DNA of 37,988 bases from a virus (taxonomy: Duplodnaviria > Caudoviricetes), in the IMG/VR virus record IMGVR_UViG_3300033407_000065, positions 1-37,988 of that record. One strand, given 5' to 3'. The position numbers were made by a program, and so were the translations under genes. This document shows, piece after piece, positions 179-37,699 of the stretch. Position 1 is the first letter of the stretch, and each line of letters begins with the position of its first letter. The notes under the pieces were generated by a model. The model saw only the letters and a list, made by a program, of their open reading frames with translations. It was not told the DNA's origin and made no database searches.

Positions 179-1006
179 TTAAAGGGAGAAAAACGACTGG
201 TTGAAGAGTCCCTCCTGGACGCCTCTTCGGGTCGGGATTCCGTCCGGCCAGGTGCCGTAGATGAGCTCCACGCAGTCGCTCTGTTTGTCCCCACCTCCGA
301 CCGTGTATTTGTAGTCCACCTCGACCACTGCCAAATCCCTGAACAGCTCCCGAATCTCCGGGTGACCGTTGATGCTGATGAGCATCTGCCCCATGATGGT
401 TTTGGCCAGGCGGGCCATCTCGACGTATTCCTCCCAGGGGAACGGGACGCCGTAGCCCTCGGTCTGCCAGTAGGGCGGGTCGCAGTAGAAGAGTGTGCCG
501 GGTCTATCGTATTTTTCGATGACCTTGCGCCAGCTCAGATGCTCGATGGTGGTCTGCGCAAGGCGGTAGTGGGCATCCGCCAAGTCCTGCTCCAGAGTGA
601 AAATGTTGAAGCGCGGCCTTGATGTGACTGAGGTACCGAAGCTCTGGCCGTCGACCTTGCCGCCGAAGGCCAGCTTTTGCAGATAGAGAAACCGGGCGGC
701 CCGCTGCACGTCGGTGAGCGTCTCTGGCGGAGTGCTCTTCAGCCACTCCCAGTTCTGGCGGCTGGTGAGGGCCCACTTGAACTGCTTGTAGAGCTCCTCC
801 AGATGATGCCGGACGACCCGATACAGGTTGACCAGATCGCCGTTGATATCGTTGAGCACTTCCACCTCGGAGGGCGGCTTCAGGAAGAAGATGGCGGCCG
901 CGCCGCAGAAGGGCTCGACGTAACATTGGTGCTTCGGAAAGAGCGGGAGGATGTGTTCGGCCAGCTTCCGCTTGCCTCCAATCCAGGGGATGATGGGTTT
1001 GGACAT
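179..1006 (-). CDS. dam: D12-class N6-adenine DNA methyltransferase (Dam-like)
   Basis: PWIGGK start, YVEPFCGAAAIF (motif I), NDIN, and catalytic DPPY. Occupies the Mu mom position. Confidence 0.93.
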   Translation of the reverse strand: MSKPIIPWIGGKRKLAEHILPLFPKHQCYVEPFCGAAAIFFLKPPSEVEVLNDINGDLVNLYRVVRHHLEELYKQFKWALTSRQNWEWLKSTPPETLTDVQRAARFLYLQKLAFGGKVDGQSFGTSVTSRPRFNIFTLEQDLADAHYRLAQTTIEHLSWRKVIEKYDRPGTLFYCDPPYWQTEGYGVPFPWEEYVEMARLAKTIMGQMLISINGHPEIRELFRDLAVVEVDYKYTVGGGDKQSDCVELIYGTWPDGIPTRRGVQEGLFNQSFFSL

Positions 1007-27719: not shown

Positions 27720-28178
27720 CTACTTCTCCCCGCTCAAATCCCAGCCTTCGCGCTCGGCCTGCTTGCGCAGGGCGGTGATGACCCGGTAGAGGTCTGCATC
27801 GGTCACCCAGGCGATCTTGTCGACCTTGCAGATCTTTTTTGCCAACACGTCTGCGTAGCTCCAGGGGCGCTTGCCCACGGTCAAGAGGGCCTCGATTTTC
27901 TCCAACTGCTTGGCGCGGCTGACCTGGTGATGGCCCTGGGCCTTTTGGGGATCCATGTTCTTCGGGCGGCCCTTGGTTTTGGCGGAAAAGCCGAGCCGGG
28001 TCAGGTGCTCCAGCACTTGCACCAGCTGCCGGTCGGTGAGGTCGGCGCAGGACTGCTTGCCGGTGACGCCGTGGAGCATGGCGCGGTAGTCCTCATCGCT
28101 CATGCCGAGTTCTTTTTGGGCGATGTGGATCTTGCTCAGCATGGGGTTGCGGCGGGGCGTGAATTTACGCTTTGCCAT
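27720..28178 (-). CDS. gemA: GemA / Mu gp16 (DUF1018)
   Basis: SKIHIAQKELGMSDEDYRAML..VTGK.SCADL...GF...KIEALL...W.YA. Confidence 0.9.
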   Translation of the reverse strand: MAKRKFTPRRNPMLSKIHIAQKELGMSDEDYRAMLHGVTGKQSCADLTDRQLVQVLEHLTRLGFSAKTKGRPKNMDPQKAQGHHQVSRAKQLEKIEALLTVGKRPWSYADVLAKKICKVDKIAWVTDADLYRVITALRKQAEREGWDLSGEK

Positions 28179-28317
28179 GGTCATCTCCCATCTCGGGCAT
28201 CTGATAGGGCTTGCGCTCGGCGTACTCCTGTTTTTTACCCTTGTTCCACTGGCAGACGGGGCGGAAGAAACCGCAGACGCGGGACCAAACTTCGGTTTTG
28301 GCGGTGCATTTCTTCAT
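28165..28317 (-). CDS. 50-aa stand-alone NrdD C-terminal glycyl-radical-like peptide (not in ORF track)
   Basis: MKKCTAKTEVWSRVCGFFRPVCQWNKGKKQEYAERKPYQMPEMGDDHGKA. ATGA-coupled to the upstream gene and overlaps the gemA start. Confidence 0.85.
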   Translation of the reverse strand: MKKCTAKTEVWSRVCGFFRPVCQWNKGKKQEYAERKPYQMPEMGDDHGKA

Positions 28318-28733
28318 CCGATGACCTCCAGAATCTCGATACTCTCGAACGTTTGCTGGTAGTGCCGACGGATGGCCGTGGCGCTGGGCCAGGTGAGATC
28401 GAAAAAGTGGATTTTCCTGTCCGGGTCGAAAAATGGGCCCAGCTCCTCGCGGAGACGCTTGGGTGTTTTTTGAAGCATTGCGCGCTCCTTTGGTTTGTGC
28501 GCAAAACGGGAAACCGGCCGCAGATAGCGCTGCTCGGGGTGGTGGTTCTCAGAAGACACCCAAGCACCCTTCATGACGCCGTCGACGTAGGTTCCGATAC
28601 CCAGGCGGTTTTTACTCACCAGGGCACGCTGGAAGGTGACCTCACGACCATCGACCTTGAGCTTGACCATGCCGTAGGTGCCCGAGAGAGCCTTTTCGAT
28701 ACGGGTCCAGTCTTCCTTGTTCAGCTTGCTCAT
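28314..28733 (-). CDS. Conserved Mu-like hypothetical protein
   Basis: True start MSKLNKEDW at 28733 (ATGA overlap). V.L.VDG..VT...YVDG..KG.W pattern. Confidence 0.75.
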   Translation of the reverse strand: MSKLNKEDWTRIEKALSGTYGMVKLKVDGREVTFQRALVSKNRLGIGTYVDGVMKGAWVSSENHHPEQRYLRPVSRFAHKPKERAMLQKTPKRLREELGPFFDPDRKIHFFDLTWPSATAIRRHYQQTFESIEILEVIG

Positions 28734-28968: not shown

Positions 28969-29007
28969 AAAAAGTCCCCCTGCGCGAGAGGAGGGGCTCG
29001 CGCAGGG
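28969..29007 (-). terminator. Terminator-like hairpin after the ribozyme
   Basis: CCCUGCGCGAG-loop-CUCGCGCAGGG followed by GGACUUUUU. Confidence 0.55.
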
Positions 29008-31010: not shown

Positions 31011-31611
31011 GGTCACCTCCGCTCCAGACGACGGCGTTTAAATTCGGATCGAAGACCTGTTTGACCCGCTGGATCTGCGGGGGTTTGGGGCCGGTGTATT
31101 TGCTGGGCAGTAGCCGGTAGATGCCGGGCTGACCTCCCTTGCCTGTGCCGCGGCCTTTTTTCACCAGGGCGAGATACCCGGCCTTGTGAAGGTGTTGGCA
31201 GTAGTACTGGGCGTCTCGCTCATGGCAGAGGCAGTCTTCGGTGCTGGCCGCGATGGCCAGCTCGCGCCAGCTGAACTCGCCCAGGATGCGCATGGTGCGC
31301 CAGAGCTGCTGGCGGCCCTGGCCCTGGGTGACGGTGACGCCGTCGCGGGTGACCCGGGGGGCGTCGATTCCGACATCCTTGACCAGGCGGTAACACTTGG
31401 CGGGGCGATGGTTGAGCCCGGGGGCGGTACCGTCTTCTGCGAGGTAGCCTGCGGCGGTGAGGCCGATCACGTAGTCGCGGATGCTGTTCTCTTCGAGCCG
31501 GGCCTCCATCCAGAGCTCCCGCAGGGTAAAGCGGCGCAGCCGACGGATGGCCACCCAGATGCCCTCGCGGCGCTGCTCGGGGCTGAGCTGGTCGATGGGG
31601 CGGCGGGTCAT
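30997..31611 (-). CDS. Tandem winged-helix DNA-binding protein
   Basis: Start MTRRPIDQ at 31611. Two repeats of W..(I/M)R.L..F...EL...Y...L..AGYL. Confidence 0.8.
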   Translation of the reverse strand: MTRRPIDQLSPEQRREGIWVAIRRLRRFTLRELWMEARLEENSIRDYVIGLTAAGYLAEDGTAPGLNHRPAKCYRLVKDVGIDAPRVTRDGVTVTQGQGRQQLWRTMRILGEFSWRELAIAASTEDCLCHERDAQYYCQHLHKAGYLALVKKGRGTGKGGQPGIYRLLPSKYTGPKPPQIQRVKQVFDPNLNAVVWSGGDHDSN

Positions 31612-32345
31612 GAGAGCCTCCGGGCGGGGGCTTGGCCGGTGTAGAAGTGGCGGTTGCCCCAGTCGGAAAGGCCGATAACCTCCAGCCCCTGGCTCAGGGC
31701 TTCTTCCTGGATGCGCTCCAGGTTGACGCAGATGCGCCGGACGGATCCGCTGCTGGCCTTGTGGACGGCGGCGATGAGATCGCGCTCGACGGTGACCTCG
31801 CGGCAGTAGAGCCGGGCGAGATGGGTGGCATCGTCGATGTCGGCGGGCTGGGCGGGCACCCAATCGAGGATCCGGCCGTGGAAGCGCTCCCATTTCTCGA
31901 GCTTCTTAGGCAGCATCTCTTCGCCGATGAGCAAAATGGCGGCCTTGGAGCCCTCGTAGAGGTCGCGGATGACCTCGACGGCGGACTTTTCCACCAGGTG
32001 GTCCATCTCATCGATGATGAGGGGGCGCCCCGAGAGGGCGAGCTGCTCGCAGATGGCGTCGGTCATGGCGTAGATGGTGCGGGGAGTCGCAACGCCCATT
32101 TCCTTGAGCACTTCCTGCAGCACGGCTTTGCGGCTCCAGGTGCTCTTGCATTCGATGTAGTAGGCCTGGTGCCGGTTGGCCGAGTAAGAGGCCGCGAAGC
32201 TCTTGCCGAACCCGGAGGGGCCGTAGAAGCAGACCATGCCGGGCAGGTGGCGAGGGCGGTCCATGGCCTTCTGGAGCGCCTCGCTGCAGAGCGAGACGTT
32301 GACCAGGGGGGCGATGGTGTTGCTTTGTGACGCGGGGTGGTGCAT
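31608..32345 (-). CDS. MuB-like AAA+ transposition ATPase
   Basis: Walker A GPSGFGKS, Walker B LIIDE, follows the transposase. Confidence 0.93.
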   Translation of the reverse strand: MHHPASQSNTIAPLVNVSLCSEALQKAMDRPRHLPGMVCFYGPSGFGKSFAASYSANRHQAYYIECKSTWSRKAVLQEVLKEMGVATPRTIYAMTDAICEQLALSGRPLIIDEMDHLVEKSAVEVIRDLYEGSKAAILLIGEEMLPKKLEKWERFHGRILDWVPAQPADIDDATHLARLYCREVTVERDLIAAVHKASSGSVRRICVNLERIQEEALSQGLEVIGLSDWGNRHFYTGQAPARRLS

Positions 32346-32418
32346 GATTCCTCCTTACGGTGTATGAGGCCCGTCAGGGCCGTGTTGGAGCCGCGTGGCA
32401 GCGCGGCTCTTTCATTTT

Positions 32419-34461
32419 TCAGGTGCCGGTGCGGCTGACGCGATCCCCCCCGAGTTCGCGTTCGACATCGTTGAAAGCCGCCCATGCCTTTGTTTTCGGG
32501 AAGCTGCGGTAAAAACTCGCCAATTCCTCGGGAACCTCCCCGCTTCGCTCCAACTCCTTCCAGAGTTTCCACTTCCCCTTGCCGTCCACCGGAATCTGCA
32601 CCTTGGTCGGTGCCGGTGCGGTCATCTCGATCTCCAGACGCTTGCGGGCGGCCTGCACCTCTGCGGCATCAATTTCGATGGGGCGGCGGCCGCCGTTGCG
32701 CTCCAGTTCGACTTCGGCGAGCTTACGCTCCAGGCGCTGGGCACGGCCCTGGGCGCGCTTCTCGGCGGCTTGCTCGACAACCGACTGCGGGAAAAATCCG
32801 CTCTTGTTGGCGCCCAGCTCGGCGATGCAGAGGAGGCGCTCGTGCTCGTCGCGGATCCAGACCTTGGCCGGGTCGTGGACGTCGTAGCCGACGCGGACAT
32901 CGCAGCCGTGCCATTCCTGCAGCTCGCGGCTGAAGTAGACGTTGCCGCTGAAGCGGACCTCGCAGCGATCGACGGTGCGCAGCACCTGGGGATAGTAGGT
33001 GTCGTCGACGCCTTCTGTCGGCACCGGCACCCAGCCCTGCTCGATGAAGCTCATCCAGTATTCGGCGGGGCTGTAATGGCGCTTTGAGCCAGTCACGGGG
33101 TCGCGCAGCTGGGGCAGGCCCTTGTGGGGGCGCTCGGCGTACTCGGCGATGGCGGCTTCGATGAGGCGAACGAAGTCGGCCCATTCGAGAAGAAGTGTTC
33201 GGTCCTTGCGGGTCTGCTTGAAGGCGACTTTGCGGGCATCTTGGTCCATGGGGGCGCCGACATAGGTGGGCAGGTTCTTGGCGGCGCTGACCAGGATGGT
33301 GCGGTGGGCGCGCTCGATGACGCCCCGGGCCTGGCTGTTGTACGGAATACTGGTCTTGTGGGTGATGCCCAGGCGGGCCAGCAAACCGGTGCCTGGCGCT
33401 GTCATGACCTCGTTGCAGTAACCGCTGCCGTTGTCCGTATAGAAGATGGCCGGGATGCCTCGCTTGTCGCAGGCATGGCGCAGGGCGTCGAGGGTGGCCA
33501 GGGTCGATTCGGCGAGCGCGACGCTCCAGCCAACCGGCATGCGGGTGGCCACATCGATGATGAGGGTGACCTCGGGCCGGAAGGGGCCGCCGTGGTGCGG
33601 GTGGGCGACTTCGGCGTCGAAGGTGTGACCGTCGGCGGCATAGATATCGCCGGGAATCAGTTCACTGGTGTCACGGCGGCGGAATCCCTTGATGGTCTTG
33701 ATCTCCTTGGGTCCCATGCGGCCCTTGTTTTTCTGGACTTCGCCGACCTTCTCCAGGAAGCGGCGGGCCTGGCTGTAATTGATATCGACGCCTTCGGCGT
33801 TGAGGGCGCGGACCACTTCGCTCAGCGCGGGCTTCTGGGGCTTGCCCCAGGCTTTGAGCAGTAGCGCTCCCCAGGGGGGCATCTGGGCCCTGGCAGCTTC
33901 ACGGGGCGCCAGGGCGGTGATGCCGACGGTGCGCTGGTCGCGCCAGCGAAACAGGGTGCGGCGGCTCAGGGTCTGCTTGCCCAACTCACCGCCGGAGCGG
34001 GCATTGGCGACGGGTACCAGGCTTTGCAGGTGGGGCGGCAGCTGCCCGGCCTGGGCCAGACTGACCACCTTCTCGACAGCCTTGGTGGTGCCGTGGAGCG
34101 GCTCCAGCTGCTCGATGAGCTGAAGCAGGGCCAGCCGGGCCTCCATGGTGCGGCGCTGCCAGCCTTTGAGTTCGCTCGAAGACGGCAGGACCTGGACGGC
34201 CAGTTCCTTGGTGACGGCTTCGACCTTCTCGGGCAGGTTGCAGACGTTGGCCGGGAGACTGGCGATGGCGGCATCGAGCAGGGCTTCACGGGCTTCTTTG
34301 GGCAGCACGTCCAGGTGGTACTCCCGCCCGCCTCCTTGGCCGTTGCGCTCTCGAAACGGCCAGGCTTCTCGTTTGGCGCGACGAATGACGCCGCTTTCTG
34401 TGCTCGGAAGCTTTGGGGTGCCAGCCAATTCGGCGGCGGTGTACCACTCCTGGGGTGTCAT
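32419..34461 (-). CDS. MuA-like DDE transposase
   Basis: N-terminal Mu HTH (WYTAAELAG...GGGREYH), DGH / YTDNGSGY / GVIER triad, and Mu C-terminal domain (V.VGYD.HD...VW). Confidence 0.96.
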   Translation of the reverse strand: MTPQEWYTAAELAGTPKLPSTESGVIRRAKREAWPFRERNGQGGGREYHLDVLPKEAREALLDAAIASLPANVCNLPEKVEAVTKELAVQVLPSSSELKGWQRRTMEARLALLQLIEQLEPLHGTTKAVEKVVSLAQAGQLPPHLQSLVPVANARSGGELGKQTLSRRTLFRWRDQRTVGITALAPREAARAQMPPWGALLLKAWGKPQKPALSEVVRALNAEGVDINYSQARRFLEKVGEVQKNKGRMGPKEIKTIKGFRRRDTSELIPGDIYAADGHTFDAEVAHPHHGGPFRPEVTLIIDVATRMPVGWSVALAESTLATLDALRHACDKRGIPAIFYTDNGSGYCNEVMTAPGTGLLARLGITHKTSIPYNSQARGVIERAHRTILVSAAKNLPTYVGAPMDQDARKVAFKQTRKDRTLLLEWADFVRLIEAAIAEYAERPHKGLPQLRDPVTGSKRHYSPAEYWMSFIEQGWVPVPTEGVDDTYYPQVLRTVDRCEVRFSGNVYFSRELQEWHGCDVRVGYDVHDPAKVWIRDEHERLLCIAELGANKSGFFPQSVVEQAAEKRAQGRAQRLERKLAEVELERNGGRRPIEIDAAEVQAARKRLEIEMTAPAPTKVQIPVDGKGKWKLWKELERSGEVPEELASFYRSFPKTKAWAAFNDVERELGGDRVSRTGT

Positions 34462-36760: not shown

Positions 36761-36821
36761 GGTGTTCAATGGTTTTAGGTATTATGGAAACGATACCTAA
36801 AAAAAAGAAATGGAGGGAGCC

Positions 36822-37157
36822 ATGAAAATAACTCTATTAGTCTCAATATTTTTGTTTGCAATATTCCCGGGGCCTTCATTTTCAAAAAGCTTTGGCCCAA
36901 AACACGACAAAGTGGCCAAGCTATTTCAAGGCAATGAAGAACCGAAGGCAAAAGATGCTGTTTGGACTCAAGAAGATATTTTTAAAATAGGCGTCATAGA
37001 TGACGGGACAAACCGAGACGGTTACGCCGAATATGCTTGCGCCGTTCTTTATAAAGAAGGTTTCAAAGGTAAGCGGGTCTGGGTCCAAATTATTGATATC
37101 GTGAAACTAAACAAAATAGGGGAATGGGTAAGGCTTGGCGAAGCCAAATGTAGGTAG
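36822..37157 (+). CDS. Secreted/periplasmic moron protein
   Basis: MKITLLVSIFLFAIFPGPSFS signal peptide, GGAG RBS, AT-rich. Confidence 0.7.
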   Translation: MKITLLVSIFLFAIFPGPSFSKSFGPKHDKVAKLFQGNEEPKAKDAVWTQEDIFKIGVIDDGTNRDGYAEYACAVLYKEGFKGKRVWVQIIDIVKLNKIGEWVRLGEAKCR

Positions 37158-37219
37158 GCAAAACGAGCTGAAAAAAGACTATTCTAGCTATCTAAAATAA
37201 GTGGGGCTGAGGCGCTAAT

Positions 37220-37699
37220 ATGTCTTTTGCTATTCATAGAAAATCTATTCATTGTCCGAACTGCAAATATGAGGGCGCTGCTAAAGTAAAAGGAACTGGA
37301 GGCACCCTTGCCATCGTCGGACTAATCTTGCTAATAGTTGGATTTTTCTTCTTGCCACTATTGATAGCTGCAATTTTACTATTTATAATTGCTACCATAA
37401 AGCCAGCAAAACAAATATGCCCTAAATGCAAATATGAAAACCCCATTCCACTACAACAGTGGAAAAAACAAAATTCCGCAAAATTCGTGTGTCCATTTTG
37501 CGCAGAACTAATTCAAAAAGATGCAATTAAATGCAAGCATTGTGGAAGTGACCTCACAAGCTTAGAAGTTAAAAATAAAATCAAAACAGCTGATAAAAGT
37601 CATATGAATTCACTTGCATACAAAGCAGGTAAATTTTTGAAAAAAATAATAAGCCTAACGCTTACCAGACCCACCCCCGACCGTAAAGCTGTCCGTTAA
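37220..37699 (+). CDS. Membrane protein with LITAF-like and double zinc-ribbon motifs
   Basis: CPNC - hydrophobic hairpin - CPKC, then CPFCAE.I..DAIKCKHCG. Very AT-rich. Confidence 0.75.
   Translation: MSFAIHRKSIHCPNCKYEGAAKVKGTGGTLAIVGLILLIVGFFFLPLLIAAILLFIIATIKPAKQICPKCKYENPIPLQQWKKQNSAKFVCPFCAELIQKDAIKCKHCGSDLTSLEVKNKIKTADKSHMNSLAYKAGKFLKKIISLTLTRPTPDRKAVR

Follow-up and report, generated by a model that had tools for sequence, protein, structure and literature searches.

A Stand-Alone Glycyl-Radical Peptide of a Mu-Like Phage and a Candidate Two-Chain Class III Ribonucleotide Reductase in Bacteria with Related Prophages

Genomic Context of the Peptide Gene

The window (the whole stretch of DNA analysed, 37,988 bases) is an entire Mu-like phage record, rated 100% complete, which encodes MuA, MuB, a repressor, and head and tail genes. 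On its minus strand, at 28165..28317, an ORF with an ATG start specifies a peptide of 50 aa, and the plus-strand frame at 28165-28317 bears no relation to the peptide sequence. A preliminary description of this DNA gave the ORF with these exact coordinates and its quoted sequence was reproduced, but the designation "hidden" does not apply, as the ORF is already a predicted protein labelled PF13597 in the collection. Immediately upstream is a gene of unknown function (phrog_5671; 28314..28733, minus strand), the TGA of which overlaps the peptide ATG in the tetranucleotide ATGA (28314-28317). A Shine-Dalgarno-like GGAGGT (28324..28329, minus strand) lies 6 nt 5' of the ATG, within the end of the phrog_5671 gene, and on the other side the start of gemA (PF06252; 27720..28184, minus strand) overlaps the end of the peptide gene by 14–20 nt. 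These overlaps and the GGAGGT suggest that the peptide gene is translationally coupled to its neighbours in an operon, as had been proposed. MuB- and MuA-like transposition genes (31608..34461, minus strand) form the head of the same-strand early region and are given for context.

A scan for promoters and terminators, a weak test with results at chance level overall, revealed no separate promoter-like site near the peptide gene, and a rough NrdR-box-like pattern did not occur within the window. The same chance-level scan gave a GC-rich, minus-strand hairpin of 11 pairs followed by a short T run (28978-29007), about 660 bp upstream of the peptide gene in the early region, which is a possible attenuator. 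Sequencing runs carrying the peptide comprised one DNA run, possibly the source of the record, and no RNA run among the matches listed. At the left end of the window, in the position of mom in Mu, is a gene for a D12-class adenine methyltransferase (179-1006, minus strand), and past the repressor are two plus-strand genes (36810-37699), one with several zinc ribbons, that are possibly morons expressed in the lysogen.

Relationship of the Peptide to Anaerobic Ribonucleotide Reductase

The peptide matched Pfam PF13597 (NRDD) over positions 526-562 of 562, i.e., the last 37 positions of the model (E 3.2e-9, 36.4 bits; cut-off 26.2), and its NCBIfam matches were to NrdD C-termini only (TIGR02487, PRK08579 and PRK08270). 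The likeness to the C-terminus of anaerobic ribonucleotide reductase (RNR) that had been seen by eye is thus borne out by the PF13597 model. Against the whole-enzyme NrdD models it scored 32–35 bits, compared to equivalog cut-offs of 326–585, and the possibility that it represents a whole NrdD enzyme is ruled out, since it has 50 aa and neither a catalytic barrel nor a finger-loop Cys. We therefore annotate it, from the PF13597 and NCBIfam matches, as a stand-alone NrdD glycyl-radical segment, the putative small subunit of a split class III RNR. The predicted radical site is Gly16 (codon at 28270..28272, minus strand), part of an R-V-C-G-F motif that was aligned by profile to the Gly loop of the Thermotoga maritima enzyme (4COI). 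Cys4 (codon at 28306..28308, minus strand) takes the position of the last of the four zinc ligands in an alignment with one-chain NrdD, a residue absent from the type-1 split bodies described below, and is a putative zinc ligand itself.

As a single sequence, the peptide matched no chain in the PDB, and a PHROG search with it matched no family. The profile of the peptide family, rather than the single sequence, reached 4COI/4U3E, with the Gly loop at 4COI 610-645 (E 0.006). AlphaFold predicted a single helix for the lone peptide (pLDDT 71.6, pTM 0.30). When the whole phage record was searched, the peptide was the sole match to PF13597, with no NrdD body, and there was no match to the radical-SAM model PF04055. 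The absence of an nrdD body and of nrdG noted in the preliminary description was confirmed by these searches, and a record without a body and without a radical-SAM gene agrees with the proposed reliance on host NrdD and NrdG.

Split Class III Reductases in Bacteria

A genome scan with the peptide family retrieved 80 loci, mostly from Desulfuromonadales and Lentisphaerota. Among the 65 cellular loci that include an NrdD body, which were picked by likeness to the peptide, 61 are split, the body ending before the Gly loop and the peptide being specified by the next gene, and four are one-chain. The typical order of a split operon is a body of about 662 aa, a Gly-loop gene of about 48 aa and, usually, nrdG. 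In one example, the host body contains an ATP-cone, the finger loop SMCCRL and positions 1-526 of PF13597. Malonomonas rubra (L106), a cultured non-pathogenic species, is among the hosts with a split NrdD. An even sample of 151 genomes, drawn from the class to which one such host (G001) belongs, contained 86 with NrdD, and the peptide was found in the same 86. The single clean one-chain nrdD gene occurred in a genome that also had a split one. A class I or class II RNR was also present in all 18 host genomes examined. Three host operons (L128, L136 and L250) carry two peptide genes, in tandem or nearby, as would be expected of a consumable part.

Read-through, frameshifting or assembly error joining the body and the peptide is excluded by the stops, frames, gaps and separate starts of the two genes. 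In 90 operons, the stop codons of the bodies were TGA (44), TAG (28) and TAA (18), the downstream gene occupied all three frames at gaps of 23–492 nt, and every peptide gene had its own start and an SD-like motif (90/90).

According to PMC11226230, the C-terminal domain of NrdD holds a structural zinc site, after which comes the buried Gly loop. In one-chain NrdD the zinc motif reads CPxHG...CPxC-x4-EV, and the break in the split enzymes falls within this site. In type-1 splits (84/84) the body stops after the third zinc ligand and lacks the fourth Cys, with which the peptide begins, whereas in type-2 splits (7/7) the body retains CPxC and the peptide is without that Cys, a covariation that represents two lineages rather than 91 events. 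In 58 of the 84 type-1 bodies, a His directly follows the third Cys and is a possible alternative ligand. The window peptide is of type 1: it has a start codon and an SD of its own, and the fourth zinc Cys (C-x4-E-V) comes shortly after its start.

An instance of the second type is found in Cupriavidus necator H16, where pHG1 (L253:1280-4356) encodes a 676 aa, 76.19 kDa body without a Gly loop, a 66 aa peptide and NrdG. The small ORF (H16_RS32675), named 'nrdD' in RefSeq and annotated by family name only, has the same body-peptide-nrdG layout, with the second break point: the body retains its four zinc ligands, and there is no Cys at -5 in the peptide. This system is cellular and not phage-borne. 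The second split type also occurs in L254 and L247-L251, with matches to Bradyrhizobium, Paracoccus and Acidiphilium plasmids. PMC2864759 cites the C. necator H16 class III enzyme as essential for complete denitrification and, since this enzyme is split, the citation points indirectly to the in vivo function of a split class III RNR. Residue Gly650 of the H16 body is the Gly of a CPTHG zinc motif and not that of a Gly loop. According to what is reported of Siedow et al. (1999), Gly650 of C. necator NrdD is dispensable. If the two-chain reading is true it would explain that result, as the Gly loop would sit on the neighbouring, unnoticed 66 aa gene.

Predicted Complex of Body and Peptide

Host split bodies match solved one-chain NrdD structures. 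The phage peptide was modelled with zinc and residues 92-662 of the body of a related lysogen, not of the phage's own host, using ESMFold2, and the complex scored 0.85, compared to 0.02 for the best of three controls. Of solved complexes, 116 of 157 attain the mark applied to this score, as do 2 of 215 mismatched pairs. At least 92% of contacts are common to the runs, with a partner pLDDT of at least 77. The tightest predicted contacts are between residues 8-12 of the peptide and 636-641 of the body, and the modelled interface includes C640, H643 and C653, residue 4 of the peptide, and the NxN-flap region of the body (121-127). The finger-loop cysteines (381/382) are absent from the confident contacts. 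The pairing of the peptide with a Gly-less NrdD body is favoured by this model (0.85 against 0.02 for the best control), but the score may merely reflect likeness to solved one-chain NrdD (4COI/4U3E and 8P23). Since the halves of split genes tend to pass through such likeness, and finger-loop contacts are lacking, the model speaks for the plausibility of the complex and not for catalysis.

Distribution and Conservation of the Peptide

A word-seeded search returned 14 other proteins of 48–70 aa, and a profile run against 1.84 billion representatives yielded 2,451 matches at E up to 1e-10, full-length NrdD included; the best 150 of the 2,451 were 46–174 aa long (median 62). In a search made without word patterns, 152 of the 153 aligned stretches had Gly16 and 144 of 147 had Cys4; conservation of the Gly among homologs was a condition that the preliminary description had set for its reading. 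A scan of viral sequences confirmed 318 of 380 candidate stretches, and 80 were kept. In 50 of the kept records, picked for length and searched whole, the peptide occurred without a body in 45 and a body was present in five. All ten of the records rated at least 90% complete had the peptide only, one of them as a copy with an in-frame stop. Two viral records (L035 and L057) have their own Gly-less NrdD body together with a peptide gene, either upstream or 2.7 kb distant. Among INPHARED phages there were only two records, one with a full NrdD and one with a 144 aa archaeal virus protein ending in the segment. The archaeal virus ANMV-1 (L011:5677-6111) specifies a 144 aa protein with a different, Cys-rich N-terminal part and the NrdD Gly segment at its end, and no body is annotated nearby.

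The setting of the peptide gene differs between phages: Mu-like early regions near gemA, a replication module, or a position beside tail genes. In a second phage group it lies in one module with genes for exonuclease VIII, Sak4, SSB, RusA, a helicase and primase-like proteins, the order being exonuclease VIII, Sak4, peptide, SSB, RusA, helicase and primase-like genes, while some phage copies adjoin tail or lipoprotein-like genes rather than replication genes. In six sequences (L015, L045, L258, P0040, P0055 and P0124) the peptide is fused N-terminally to lipoprotein-like phage proteins, and in L037 it appears to be in frame with a GemA-like protein; in both cases either true fusions or lost stops are possible.

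In a tree of the family, the window peptide grouped with the host subunits of Desulfuromonadales (support 97/94), apart from one-chain tails, and inside a phage-only clade of 16 rows (support 97/87), although the tree is rough, with 41 columns, an unsettled bootstrap and 77 of 145 forks open. It is identical to the G001 host subunit at 29 of 45 positions. Across a 15-member phage clade, pN was lower than pS in all 105 pairs, with a pN/pS of 0.25 at near-saturated synonymous sites; the value for host copies was 0.11, indicating faster drift in the phage. Position 11 is Trp in 15/15 copies of the phage clade and Tyr in 53/53 hosts, a contrast to be read with the knowledge that the search pattern favoured Trp. 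All host-invariant residues are kept in the phage clade except position 11 and the more variable positions 22 and 32. Trp at position 11 is also found in three of seven one-chain NrdD tails and in type-2 host peptides, while the other phage groups look host-like, the Trp change being confined to one phage clade.

A close prophage in G109 has an empty insertion site, an arrangement seen at L235:5447-5914, where the phrog_5671 gene of a close prophage is followed directly by gemA. Given the empty site and two broken phage copies, the peptide gene is dispensable. L062:5992-6162 is a phage copy with an in-frame TAA that has an intact sister copy in L242, and L003:4472-4558 is a truncated duplicate of the peptide, upstream of the phrog_5671 gene.

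Association with Split Host Enzymes

Thirteen genomes contained a lone peptide, of which ten also had a split operon and three were cut off at contig ends. In the 151-genome class sample, lone peptides were found in 8/86 NrdD-positive and 0/65 NrdD-negative genomes (p = 0.010), or 7/85 and 0/65 without the centre genome (p = 0.019), p-values which, like those below, overstate independence because the genomes are related by descent. Among 51 genomes of the class that includes the Lentisphaerota MAG G008, lone peptides occurred in 10 of the 11 split-bearing genomes, seven of which additionally have a one-chain NrdD. They were found in 0/26 one-chain-only and 0/14 NrdD-free genomes of the same sample (0/40 together), bearing in mind that divergent peptides may be harder to detect in the one-chain lineages. 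Mu-like prophages with the peptide were present in five of six resolved NrdD-positive hosts and none of six NrdD-negative ones (p = 0.015), a count made without G141, which lies at a contig end, G072 and G080, which have only a weak marker, G114 and G133, whose E is above 1e-4, and G091, which is not Mu-like. With all 18 marker-positive genomes counted, the figures are 6/11 and 0/7 (p = 0.038). Of 18 lone-peptide loci, 14 share further genes with viral loci, three have PHROG replication-type neighbours and one has neither. Judging from the related prophages, the host group of the window phage is probably Desulfuromonadales.

Discussion

The C-terminal Gly loop and tail of the phage peptide are the same as those of one-chain NrdD, which works with NrdG (T. 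maritima, 4COI/4U3E; P. copri, 8P23; phage T4, 1H78). What sets the phage peptide apart from the one-chain enzymes is that everything from the fourth zinc ligand on has its own gene, and that the phage has neither the body nor the activase. The closest parallels in design are GrcA/YfiD of E. coli and Y06I of phage T4, each likewise a small, stand-alone glycyl-radical domain, also phage-borne, that needs the host enzyme and activase. GrcA/YfiD is a protein of about 14 kDa directed at pyruvate formate-lyase (PFL), whereas the window peptide has about 50 aa and would be directed at RNR, and the split host body, unlike the target of GrcA, never has a Gly loop of its own, making the peptide an obligate subunit rather than a back-up. 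Membership of the GrcA/YfiD family was rejected, as no PFL-type glycyl-radical model of Pfam or NCBIfam matched the peptide at E up to 1. Nor does the peptide duplicate a segment on its target's own chain, as GrcA does, the bodies of the associated hosts being Gly-less. Another two-chain arrangement is the split class II RNR, NrdJa/NrdJb, in which the zinc-containing C-terminal part is likewise on the second chain (as outlined in part of PMC9669993). That enzyme differs in being class II and B12-dependent, and NrdJb is a large folded piece without a stored radical. The passage on 'split' RNR in PMC9669993 and in its bioRxiv version concerns class II. Phage nrdD genes broken by introns or into fragments are treated in PMC3653736, where the relevant passages do not mention a lone Gly peptide. 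A search covering the main texts of mostly open-access papers found no description of a split class III RNR or of lone NrdD peptides.

Host bodies without the Gly, accompanied by a separate gene for the segment, imply that the phage has captured one subunit of a two-chain enzyme. From the sequence comparisons and the model, we consider it fairly probable that the peptide is an exchangeable, extra radical subunit for the split class III RNR of the host, activated by NrdG and sustaining the supply of dNTPs. Bacteria with related prophages encode a body that ends at the third zinc ligand, the peptide gene and nrdG, and the phage encodes the peptide only. The peptide would be translated within the early operon with phrog_5671 and gemA, as the overlaps and SD indicate, and residues 8-12 are predicted to pair with the last beta-strand of the body, while Cys4 would complete the C-x2-H...C zinc site and tether the peptide. 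Host NrdG would then install the radical on Gly16 to give an active hybrid enzyme, and extra peptide would fill bodies that are empty or have been clipped by O2, keeping up the dNTP supply for replicative transposition. The cost to the phage would be 153 bp instead of about 3 kb. Several observations count against this explanation. The class I/II RNR of all the hosts examined means that class III need not be limiting, and the host makes its own peptide, which need not be in short supply. A cut by O2 at Gly16 would leave residues 1-15, including Cys4 and the tightest predicted contacts, on the body, so exchange may be slow. The dispensability of the gene, the faster drift and Trp11 of the phage copies, the possible extra His ligand in type-1 bodies and the position of some copies beside tail or lipoprotein-like genes also weigh on this side.

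That the peptide is instead a decoy or competitive inhibitor seems unlikely to us. It would bind the host body or NrdG, giving a dead or slow enzyme or a waste of SAM, and so shift nucleotide pools or stall the host. The phage-only clade (97/87), with its fixed Tyr11-to-Trp change and faster evolution, is compatible with such a role, as is the position of the gene in the Mu early region near gemA, a site of host-affecting genes, and binding is predicted under either reading. However, the host-invariant residues are kept apart from positions 11, 22 and 32, the Trp11 of the clade recurs in one-chain tails (3/7) and type-2 host peptides, and all of the repeated, independent captures keep the Gly, for which a dominant negative would have no use. 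The class I/II RNR would also give the host a bypass, and a transposing phage needs dNTPs. Sequestration of NrdG by a decoy, which the preliminary description had raised, is less likely than a dNTP boost. We regard as rather improbable the idea that the gene is a moron of benefit to the lysogen, a functional subunit expressed from the prophage that shields host RNR in oxygen pulses and does not serve lytic replication. It would account for an accessory insertion at a sometimes empty site, for the many resident prophages that carry the peptide (several copies in some hosts) and for a place immediately ahead of gemA, a gene whose Mu counterpart is described as expressed in the lysogen. The promoter scan, a weak test, gave it no separate promoter-like site, and its coupling to early genes and its replication-module location in other phages count against the idea.

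A third possibility, very doubtful in our view, is that the phage variant retunes regulation by lowering the dATP feedback sensitivity of the host enzyme through the ATP-cone. The ATP-cone is kept in host bodies, the model places the peptide against the NxN-flap region (121-127), and dATP is reported, in part of PMC11226230, to act on P. copri NrdD by mobilising the glycyl-radical domain, a mechanism that would suit such retuning. The Trp change is found in one phage clade only, and the remaining phage groups are host-like. Repair of one-chain NrdD after cleavage by O2, in the manner of GrcA, is barely credible, even with the precedent of YfiD and Y06I for PFL (set out in a passage of PMC8683613) and the co-occurrence of one-chain NrdD in 7/11 split-bearing genomes of the G008 class. 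Lone peptides were found in 0/26 one-chain-only genomes, where sensitivity for divergent peptides is lower, a cleaved one-chain NrdD would still have its own four ligands for zinc, with the strand whose place the peptide has to take left in position, and the tree places the peptide with split subunits and not with one-chain tails. Hence, of the earlier proposal of a spare-part radical domain for host NrdD, the stand-alone NrdD Gly segment stands, but repair of O2-cleaved full-length NrdD does not fit its distribution (0/26 one-chain-only compared to 10/11 split-bearing genomes). Just as hard to credit is a neutral passenger or a decaying fragment of nrdD. The gene is short and patchily distributed and two copies are broken, but its own SD, coupled overlaps, host-dependent occurrence and long-lived phage clade all argue otherwise, and the purifying selection implied by a pN/pS of 0.25 appears already to have largely refuted this reading.

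The captured-subunit reading invites a wider one, on which our belief and doubt are evenly balanced: that two-chain class III RNR may be common in anaerobes, with the O2-labile radical carried on a cartridge of about 48 aa tethered by a shared zinc, and that unrelated phage families may have independently captured the cartridge alone to drive or retune host dNTP synthesis. In annotation and phylogenies, split bodies are treated as ordinary NrdD and the peptides as fragments, and small ORFs of this kind are already labelled 'nrdD' in RefSeq. The validated glycyl-radical spare parts, as given in a passage of PMC8683613, are YfiD and Y06I only. In the part of a June 2026 review (PMC13450708) that deals with them, spare parts are known only for formate lyases, and whether they exist beyond PFL is called undetermined, a question on which the present finding bears. 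If our interpretation is true, the peptide would be the first glycyl-radical subunit to act obligatorily in trans, as well as the first spare part of an enzyme other than PFL, and the question can be tested directly on the split enzyme with a synthetic 50-mer. Studies of NrdG would gain a minimal substrate in a radical peptide that is separable from its enzyme, and such a peptide might lead to O2-sensitive catalysts that can be repaired. In the phage, the 153 bp would constitute an auxiliary metabolic gene that relies on the host for enzyme and activase alike.
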